A stretch of DNA of 64,000 nucleotides from Candidatus Altiarchaeota archaeon (GCA_016931955.1 JAFGDV010000022.1:35342-99341); one strand, 5' to 3'. Counted from the first letter of the stretch, positions 51,699-53,186 are shown. Program-made: numbers and translations. The notes: generated by a model from the sequence alone, not told the origin.

Positions 51699-53186
51699 AT
51701 GAGCGAAAGCATAAGCAAGAGGAACAAGAGGTATTGGAGGGTCTTCGGGATACTAATTGCTGCCTTGCTCTTATATATGTTATACAGGCTAGGCGGATAC
51801 ATCGACGTGATCCTCTATGGGATCTTCGTATACTACGTCACCAGACCGATTTATGAGAGGGTGAACAAGAAGCTTAATAAGAAGAACATCTCTGCGGGGC
51901 TTTCACTCTTCCTCTTCGTACTGCCGGTGATACTGATCTTCATATACGCATCCATCGTCGCCGCCGTCGAATTGAATAGTCTTCTGGGAAGCATAGACTA
52001 TGAGATACCTGTCGAATCCTTCGAAGAGACCATAGACCAACTGAACGTGATAGGGAAAGAGCTGACGTCTAGAGATAATGAAACATGTTCAATACCTACT
52101 TGCTTTGATGGCATACAAAACCAGGATGAAACTGGAATAGACTGCGGAGGAACATGCCAACCCTGCCACTGCAAGAACGAAATACTGGACGAAAACGAGA
52201 CAGAGATAGACTGCGGAGGAACATGCCAACCCTGCCACTGCAAGAACGAAATACTGGACGAAAACGAGACAGAGATAGACTGCGGAGGAAGTTGTCTGCC
52301 CTGTGGAAACGAGGAATCCTGTTTAGTGGACGGAGACTGCACCACGGGATTGTGCCATGAGGGAACATGCCAGACGCCAAGCTGCGACAGTGAACAGTTG
52401 ATTCCACAAGAAGATCACACCCAGGTAACACAGGAAAAAAAGAACCTTACACCAAGTGAGCTATGGACTATGATAACAGACAGACTCAACCTGAGCGAAT
52501 TCATAGGACCCATCACAGATATTATTAACAACGTAGTCAATCTCATCGTCATGTTTGCGTTCAAGTTGTTCCTCATGTTCACAATAGGCTTCTACCTGCT
52601 GAAAGACGGCCACCAGCTCAGGGAATGGTTCCCAAAATCAGCCCTTGGAGGGGACACCGAACTCTTCGAAAGATTCATTGAATCAGTAGACAAAGACCTG
52701 CAGAAGATCTTCTTCGGCAACATCCTAGTCGCGGTGCTCACCGCCTGTATAGCCATCGTCCTCTTCCACATTCTGAATTTCATCGCGCCAGGATTATCTC
52801 CAGGATTAAAGCTCGAGATACCCTACCCATTCCTCCTCGGACTACTGTGTGGAATAGGGATCTTTGTGCCAGGGATAGGTATAAAAATCGTATGGGTGCC
52901 TCTTTGGATGTATCTAGCAATCCAGGCATATCTGCATAACATGCTCTTAGGCGCAGGATGGTTCCTTCTGCTCTTTCCGGTGACCGTCTTCCTGCTGGTG
53001 GATCTCGCCCCAGACCTCATCCTGCGACCGATAATAAGCTCAAGGAGGATACATAGGGGGGTGCTGCTGCTGGCATACCTCTTCGGCTACATAGCCTTCG
53101 GCTTCATGGGACTATTCCTCGGACCTATAATAATCGTCCTGGCGACGAACTTCATCAGCATTGTTCTACCCGAGATACGGGGTTAG
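51699..53186 (+). CDS. AI-2E/UPF0118 family permease with an inserted extracytoplasmic triple Cys-rich module
   Basis: N- and C-terminal AI-2E-like TM blocks ('PGIGIKIVWVPL', 'GPIIIVLATNF'). Insert 'CFDGIQNQDETGIDCGGTCQPCHC' followed by two identical 'KNEILDENETEIDCGGTCQPCHC' units and a Cys knot. Confidence 0.6.
   Translation: MSESISKRNKRYWRVFGILIAALLLYMLYRLGGYIDVILYGIFVYYVTRPIYERVNKKLNKKNISAGLSLFLFVLPVILIFIYASIVAAVELNSLLGSIDYEIPVESFEETIDQLNVIGKELTSRDNETCSIPTCFDGIQNQDETGIDCGGTCQPCHCKNEILDENETEIDCGGTCQPCHCKNEILDENETEIDCGGSCLPCGNEESCLVDGDCTTGLCHEGTCQTPSCDSEQLIPQEDHTQVTQEKKNLTPSELWTMITDRLNLSEFIGPITDIINNVVNLIVMFAFKLFLMFTIGFYLLKDGHQLREWFPKSALGGDTELFERFIESVDKDLQKIFFGNILVAVLTACIAIVLFHILNFIAPGLSPGLKLEIPYPFLLGLLCGIGIFVPGIGIKIVWVPLWMYLAIQAYLHNMLLGAGWFLLLFPVTVFLLVDLAPDLILRPIISSRRIHRGVLLLAYLFGYIAFGFMGLFLGPIIIVLATNFISIVLPEIRG
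52139..52276. repeat. perfect 69-bp tandem duplication (x2) inside the permease gene
   Basis: 'gactgcggaggaacatgccaaccctgccactgcaagaacgaaatactggacgaaaacgagacagagata' occurs twice, head to tail. Confidence 0.9.

Follow-up and report, generated by a model that had tools for sequence, protein, structure and literature searches.

The window analysed here is a stretch of 64,000 nucleotides from a Candidatus Altiarchaeota archaeon (GCA_016931955.1, JAFGDV010000022.1:35342-99341), and all positions are counted from its first letter. An open reading frame on the plus strand at 51699-53186 begins with ATG and encodes a product of 495 aa. This product is identical to NCBI MBN2014357.1, which was deposited under the name "AI-2E family transporter" from a Candidatus Altiarchaeota MAG on a 115.8-kb contig, and the protein cluster of this accession has a single member on a single contig. 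The 495-aa protein was matched by the Pfam family AI-2E_transport (PF01594) with an E value of 8.4e-29 and 101.2 bits (cutoff 34.3). The match is broken into two stretches that flank an insert at residues 124-248, with the break between profile positions 109 and 110, and the better stretch aligns residues 251-487 to profile positions 110-324. The preliminary description had proposed that a Cys-rich insert splits an otherwise standard AI-2E core, and this is supported. The open reading frame is a genuine gene for a membrane transporter of the AI-2E family (TqsA/PerM/UPF0118 type) of an Altiarchaeota archaeon.

The AI-2E family includes AI-2 exporters as well as Na+/H+ antiporters (PMC9475539, PMC7221264). 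Since UPF0118 members are antiporters, the substrate is not fixed by family membership, and the term "small-molecule exporter", as used for this protein in the preliminary description, is best taken as a family name only. Both the UPF0118 Na+(Li+)/H+ antiporters (PMC7221264) and YtvI of Bacillus subtilis (TIGR02872) belong to the same family as the window protein, which lies under the YtvI equivalog cutoff in NCBIfam (weak sub-threshold match, E 3.9e-09, scoring 36 bits where 198 are required). No literature that links Altiarchaeota with AI-2E was found.

The features of the locus are collected in Table 1. The gene stands between a gene for an MFS transporter and a gene for the tetraether lipid synthase Tes, a radical SAM protein. 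As listed, the Tes open reading frame starts with TTG at 53161 and overlaps the stop of the AI-2E gene by 26 nt. An in-frame ATG at 53221 gives a product of 506 aa, the length of the orthologue on a second contig (L001, described below), and this ATG is probably the true start. A conserved gene order was found in the window (46037-58468) and on seven further contigs (L002-L007 and L010), consisting of Na_Ca_ex, in some cases a ferredoxin, geranylgeranyl reductase (GGR), UbiB and/or MFS, AI-2E, Tes, ProRS, a small ORF and FIST.

Table 1. Features of the AI-2E locus in the window, with the evidence for each.
Feature	Position	Strand	Evidence
MFS transporter gene, upstream, in conserved synteny	50447..51658	+	Pfam; gene order of relatives
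AI-2E family (PF01594) transporter gene	51699..53186	+	ORF call; Pfam match; NCBI identity
N-terminal core, residues 1-123 (H1 and H2, and H3 with its hydrophilic outer half)	51699..52067	+	AF2 helices; alignment to insert-less orthologues
Insert, residues 124-248	52068..52442	+	alignment with insert-less AI-2E relatives
Cys module 1 (C135-C156), CFDGIQNQDETGIDCGGTCQPC	52101..52166	+	fit to the 22-aa consensus given in the text
Repeat unit A, 69 bp	52137..52205	+	Tandem Repeats Finder; lag identity
Cys module 2 (C158-C179), CKNEILDENETEIDCGGTCQPC	52170..52235	+	translation; motif; consensus
Repeat unit B, 69 bp, 69/69 identical to unit A	52206..52274	+	Tandem Repeats Finder; lag identity
Cys module 3 (C181-C202), CKNEILDENETEIDCGGSCLPC	52239..52304	+	translation; motif; consensus
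Start of unit C (16 bp), matching units A and B exactly	52275..52290	+	lag identity
Cys knot (C208-C229), CLVDGDCTTGLCHEGTCQTPSC	52320..52385	+	element common to other module-bearing proteins
C-terminal core, residues 249-495 (H4, TMH5, hairpin HP1, TMH6, hairpin HP2)	52443..53183	+	AF2 pLDDT mostly 80-97; best Pfam stretch 251-487
Tetraether lipid synthase Tes (radical SAM), downstream; probable start	53221..54741	+	ORF call; NCBIfam; L001 orthologue

The insert is about 125 aa long, and its borders, ...NVIGKELT and LTPSELW..., were set by alignments with 14 and later 29 insert-less relatives. It contains 18 Cys. Its parts are three four-Cys modules of 22 aa each, a single Cys knot and a short linker of acidic character, and the wider stretch of residues 124-268 has 31 D/E against 6 K/R. 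A consensus of the module, CsDGIqNqdETGIDCGGpCxpC, was derived from 80 of 86 instances. The pattern C-x13-C-x3-C-x2-C, with D3, N7 and E10 and with CGG after D14, is matched in full by module 1. In modules 2 and 3 the spacing of the Cys is retained along with E10 and D14-CGG, and both are atypical in having KNEILDENETE in place of SDGIQNQGETG. The DCGG.C..C segment reads DCGGTCQPCHC in two modules and DCGGSCLPCGN in the third, and beyond the three modules lies a further Cys cluster, SCLVDGDCTTGLCHEGTCQTPSC. The earlier account gave an insert of some 130 aa with three DCGGTCQPCHC modules and a knot; three modules and a knot are present, two of the modules carry this exact motif, and the length is about 125 aa. 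As a whole, the layout resembles an excerpt from a longer array, with a leading Cys, three modules, the knot and the first Cys of a would-be fourth module. N-E-T sequons stand before each of the three modules (52077-52085, 52194-52202 and 52263-52271) and may be N-glycosylation sites; the usual module consensus (QNQGETG) has no such sequon, and two of the three are retained in the orthologue.

Within the insert lies a perfect tandem repeat. Tandem Repeats Finder reported it at 52137-52290 with a period of 69, 2.2 copies, 100% matches and no indels, and perfect identity at a lag of 69 spans 85 bp; an identical 69-bp pair is not expected by chance, as judged from 100 shuffles. The two identical units announced in the preliminary description are thus present, 2 bp upstream of the position given there (52137-52274 instead of 52139-52276). 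Past 52290 unit C diverges, and overall 34 of its 69 positions are identical. The repeat register is offset from that of the modules, with unit A running from the DCGG of module 1 through the ETE of module 2. Within the window, a perfect module pair occurs in the AI-2E gene only. The module array of a 1880-aa surface protein is encoded by a 72-bp tandem at 34997-35231, with 3.3 copies and 76% matches, and has diverged.

One orthologue with the same architecture was found. This protein (P0002) has 495 aa, is 85% identical to the window protein and is encoded on L001, a contig that Logan assembled independently from SRR11241199; the gene order there matches that of the window, with the same radical-SAM gene downstream. 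The two genes align without gaps at 84.7% nucleotide identity. Since an independently assembled gene has the same length and aligns gaplessly, the split architecture does not stem from a chimeric assembly.

The closest insert-less relatives have 346-360 aa, are 48-61% identical over the core, and run straight from one flanking segment to the other without any Cys in between. Four of them (P0003, P0004, P0007 and P0011; 347-353 aa, 52-61% core identity to the window protein) are encoded in the same neighbourhood of MacB/FtsX, Na_Ca_ex, ferredoxin, GGR, UbiB or MFS, AI-2E, Tes, ProRS and FIST. In these proteins helices H3 and H4 are joined directly (...IGQQ-LTPQELW...) and the junction contains no Cys, whereas the window protein bears the insert there. 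They are positional orthologues, and the insert is a gain. It arose once, later than the divergence from these insert-less proteins and earlier than that of the two known carriers from each other.

The rarity of the combination was assessed by several searches. A phmmer search of 1.84e9 representative proteins gave 5498 hits, and among the best 150 of these only P0002 spans core and insert in one stretch; the other matches among those listed are core-only proteins (206-522 aa) or giant proteins with the module only. The insert was absent from the 80 best GTDB loci in the scan of the family alignment, which included an Altiarchaeota MAG. Two long GTDB matches in Halorientalis were considered as insert carriers and rejected, being tandem paralogues. 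Protein scans of genome contigs and metagenome contigs yielded no further insert carriers, and a search with the insert alone returned short module proteins only. The known carriers are thus two sequences, and the claim that the union of module and transporter is unusual holds up among the best 150 of the 5498 hits. The AI-2E protein of the window is a genuine variant, lineage-specific and so far unique, within a known family of transporters.

The position of the insert relative to the membrane was addressed by structure prediction. The AF2 model of the full protein, made with 31 homologues, has a confident core (pLDDT 80-97) with six long helical segments and two hairpins. The N-terminal helices comprise residues 4-30, 32-59 and 62-98 plus 105-126, and the C-terminal part consists of 252-262 plus 265-316, 321-362, a hairpin at 377-412, 420-446 and a hairpin at 453-494. 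For the insert, pLDDT was about 32 in the full-length model and 48.8 on average when it was modelled alone with a 19-row alignment of modules, and these models are too poor for a fold search. Foldseek returned the Escherichia coli proteins TqsA (YdgG; 7nb6_A, probability 1.00, E 0.02) and YdiK (7ot9_A) as top PDB matches to the protein, with low TM-scores to TqsA of 0.28/0.38. Both belong to the same Pfam family. Neither a single sequence nor a profile of the core found a sequence match in PDB, and because these searches were empty the link to TqsA comes through the fold search only. In this comparison the host of the window protein is archaeal and no pairwise sequence match to TqsA or YdiK was detected, yet the order of helices (H1-H4, TMH5, HP1, TMH6, HP2) in the AF2 model is that published for TqsA (PMC9475539).

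Both termini of TqsA are cytoplasmic, and its H3 (61-109) and H4 (118-164) pair antiparallel as a hairpin, with their hydrophilic halves in the periplasm (PMC9475539). The short loop between H3 and H4 makes contacts between protomers on the rim of a periplasmic basin in the pentamer, and the H3-H4 region is flexible and poorly resolved in both TqsA and YdiK (PMC9475539). The window protein also has an H3-H4 hairpin with hydrophilic outer halves, and the insert is located exactly at its tip; the loop has 8 residues in TqsA, whereas 125 extra Cys-rich residues stand there in the window protein. The charges are unevenly distributed, with K+R to D+E counts of 5/1 for both the N-terminal tail and the loop 51-63, and of 7/40 for residues 91-275. 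This last region also contains five of the protein's six N-x-S/T sequons, a placement that lends weak support to an outward-facing insert. Because the charge distribution (positive-inside rule), the TqsA topology and the secreted partner domains of the module point the same way, the insert is predicted to be extracytoplasmic and to point away from the cell at the rim of the external basin. The proposal of an extracytoplasmic loop made from the sequence alone is thereby supported, through the charge distribution, the predicted fold matching TqsA and the published periplasmic position of the H3-H4 loop.

The four-Cys module occurs widely outside this gene. Within the window, three large putative surface proteins share DCGG modules: 8161-12660 (+), 31745-33904 (-) and 33955-39597 (-). 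The N-terminus of the 719-aa protein resembles a signal peptide and its C-terminus bears a TM anchor, and the protein also contains modules and a NosD/beta-helix domain; the 1880-aa protein carries NosD and DUF2341 domains alongside its modules, and the 1499-aa module protein drew no match from Pfam. Outside this organism the module stands beside PKD, F5/8C, reprolysin, M43, fn3, CAP, DUF11 and GEVED domains, with T9SS sorting tails. Altogether, the partner domains are of secreted or surface types throughout (NosD/beta-helix, PKD, T9SS tail, reprolysin, F5/8C and lipobox lipoproteins), and other module carriers have signal peptides, lipoboxes or T9SS tails. A knot with the pattern C...DC.SG.C..G.C often follows the modules, as it does in the 719-aa and 1880-aa proteins of the window and in many bacterial matches, and the arrangement of module, knot and module is common to the insert and to secreted or surface proteins. 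The cassette type is therefore present in secreted or surface proteins of the same genome and of many bacteria and archaea. No recent donor was found within the genome, since the best match there, in the 1880-aa protein, is only 42% identical.

Compared with these unnamed module proteins (the window surface proteins, T9SS proteins and lipoproteins of Bacteroidota, and proteins of Myxococcota), the insert shares the Cys spacing and the D/N/E/D-CGG positions and differs in setting and number. Elsewhere its hosts are extracellular proteins, soluble or with a single anchor, and the arrays are often long, with as many as 29 matched stretches, whereas here three modules lie inside a loop of a polytopic transporter. 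The module is apparently mobile between protein contexts. No family covering it was found in Pfam (E values up to 10), NCBIfam or a profile search of PDB, and the same three sources returned no characterised adhesin domain that matches it; the label of a surface-adhesin module, used in the preliminary description, is unsupported. Pfam scans of the module-rich giant proteins likewise returned nothing that names the module, the literature on hami contains nothing on it, and a preprint on cysteine-rich repeats yielded neither a sequence nor a consensus for comparison. We flag it here as a widespread four-Cys module of many bacterial and archaeal phyla that is unannotated in the libraries searched. 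In small Bacteroidota lipoproteins (P0265, P0282 and P0284) the module array comes straight after the lipobox Cys and ahead of the functional domain, in the manner of a stalk at the N-terminus; P0284 bears the precomputed Pfam family PF28492, which might describe the module.

The history of the repeat was read from a comparison of the two carrier genes. Units 1 and 2 of the orthologue (L1 and L2) are identical at 47 of 69 nt, whereas the corresponding units of the window gene (W1 and W2) are identical to each other and agree with L1 and with L2 at 51 of 69 positions each. Unit 3 is orthologous between the two genes (60/69). Because the 495-aa orthologue has the same three modules and its units 1 and 2 have diverged, three modules are the ancestral state. 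The comparison then indicates that units 1 and 2 of the window gene were recently homogenised, by gene conversion or by loss and reduplication, while the copy number stayed at three. The direction of conversion is not readable, since the window units agree with L1 at 10 diagnostic sites and with L2 at 10. The pair of orthologues thus offers a clean small case of concerted evolution inside a gene.

Selection on the insert was estimated from one pairwise comparison, that of the window gene with the L001 gene at a dS of about 0.55. In this comparison dN/dS was 0.08 and 0.11 for the two halves of the core, 0.33 for the insert overall, 0.16 for module 3 plus the knot and about 1.0 for the linker at residues 230-248. 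All 18 Cys of the insert are conserved between the two proteins. With every Cys kept and a dN/dS of 0.33, the insert is maintained under purifying selection in its Cys-rich part.

Taken together, we favour the reading of a real AI-2E transporter with an outward Cys cassette that was gained once and whose modules 1 and 2 were homogenised within the gene, and give it a probability of about 0.7. By homology, the core would transport as other family members do, as a pentamer with an elevator-type C-terminal domain, and five inserts per pentamer would project outward from the basin rim. The insert may form an acidic stalk that is stabilised by disulfides and possibly by Ca2+, and may offer a surface that binds envelope components or cations or keeps them at a distance, outside the translocation path. 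As AF2 gave no confident fold for the insert, the ideas of a stalk, disulfides and Ca2+ are drawn from the sequence pattern and its context. The organism is probably an anaerobe, and the formation of extracellular disulfides is then not assured. If the favoured reading is true, no other AI-2E-family transporter encountered in this analysis has a folded extracellular domain, and a graft on the flexible H3-H4 tip at the basin rim would be a natural handle on the role of this poorly resolved region. Practical consequences are limited, as the database entry already names the protein "AI-2E family transporter" and only two sequences carry the insert. A bolder proposal, to which we give little credence, is that the pentamer bears a surface-exposed "crown" of 15 acidic Cys modules that docks to an envelope partner, such as further module-bearing proteins or the envelope's outer layer in Altiarchaeota, or that gates or concentrates substrate at the external basin, with slippage of the 69-bp unit varying the module number in the manner of a contingency locus.

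Other explanations of the repeat concern its age and its reality. Complete identity of the 69-bp units is the usual mark of a fresh tandem duplication, and the preliminary description had accordingly suggested a very recent in-frame duplication, which would mean a net gain from two modules to three in the window lineage. This is quite improbable, because the L001 orthologue also has 495 aa and three modules in the same register with old, diverged units 1 and 2 (47/69 nt), so that, from a two-module ancestor, the sister lineage would have had to duplicate the same site independently and far earlier. The two carriers do not differ in copy number: both have three modules at the same positions. 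The suggestion that the repeat arose in assembly, through a wrong copy number or through similar units being made identical by graph simplification or consensus, is rather unlikely as well. The perfect repeat does rest on a single assembly, with one supporting contig (cluster of one member), the perfect tract of 154 bp is close to the length of a short read, and the unit junction occurs in no other public contig, an exact scan of metagenome contigs having returned no match. The length of the gene and the number of modules, however, equal those of the independently assembled orthologue, the frame is intact, the remaining gene is colinear and gapless, and an error in copy number would shift the length by 23 aa. 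An assembler error in copy number, by collapse or by expansion, is on these grounds unlikely. Two near-identical units might still have been homogenised in the consensus.

The favoured reading, that of a maintained outward cassette, must also be weighed against two other views of the insert itself. It might be a functionless passenger, a fragment of a surface-protein gene lodged in a flexible loop, a view that we consider doubtful without dismissing it. The H3-H4 region is flexible and poorly resolved in TqsA and YdiK (PMC9475539), the loop varies among relatives (P0019 and P0024), and evolution is more rapid in the insert, with an omega of 0.33 and a linker near 1.0, than in the core at about 0.1; a passenger would nevertheless hardly be expected to keep all 18 Cys and the DCGG cores at a dS of about 0.55, an omega of 0.16 over module 3 plus the knot, and its frame and length in both lineages. 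It is highly improbable that the modules bind a metal or an Fe-S cluster in a loop that is cytoplasmic or redox-active. Each module does have four Cys, and C-x3-C-x2-C is the spacing of radical-SAM proteins, but the module occurs in proteins exported by Sec or T9SS, in lipoproteins of aerobic Bacteroidota and in the signal-peptide proteins of the window, and the charge bias and the TqsA topology place the loop outside. A cofactor-loaded loop of a polytopic protein would, moreover, be hard to translocate.

The neighbourhood of the gene could suggest a functional link of AI-2E with the lipid genes for Tes and GGR. This was considered and rejected, as the adjacency occurs only within the Altiarchaeota-like set, and across the Altiarchaeota-like contigs the position of Tes is variable or the gene is absent. 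Gene order was not conserved around the homologues in Halobacteriota and Methanocella. The adjacency of AI-2E to ether-lipid genes is accordingly treated as lineage synteny. Two AI-2E paralogues stand in tandem in Halorientalis salina (L076, 3001-5212) and two lie within 3 kb in Methanocella (L009, 4001-8348), and local duplication of the AI-2E family appears to be common in Halobacteriota. Elsewhere in the window, an imperfect short tandem (periods of 12, 15 and 24 bp; 73-86% matches) was observed at 27901-27980, near the start of the open reading frame 27814-28815.
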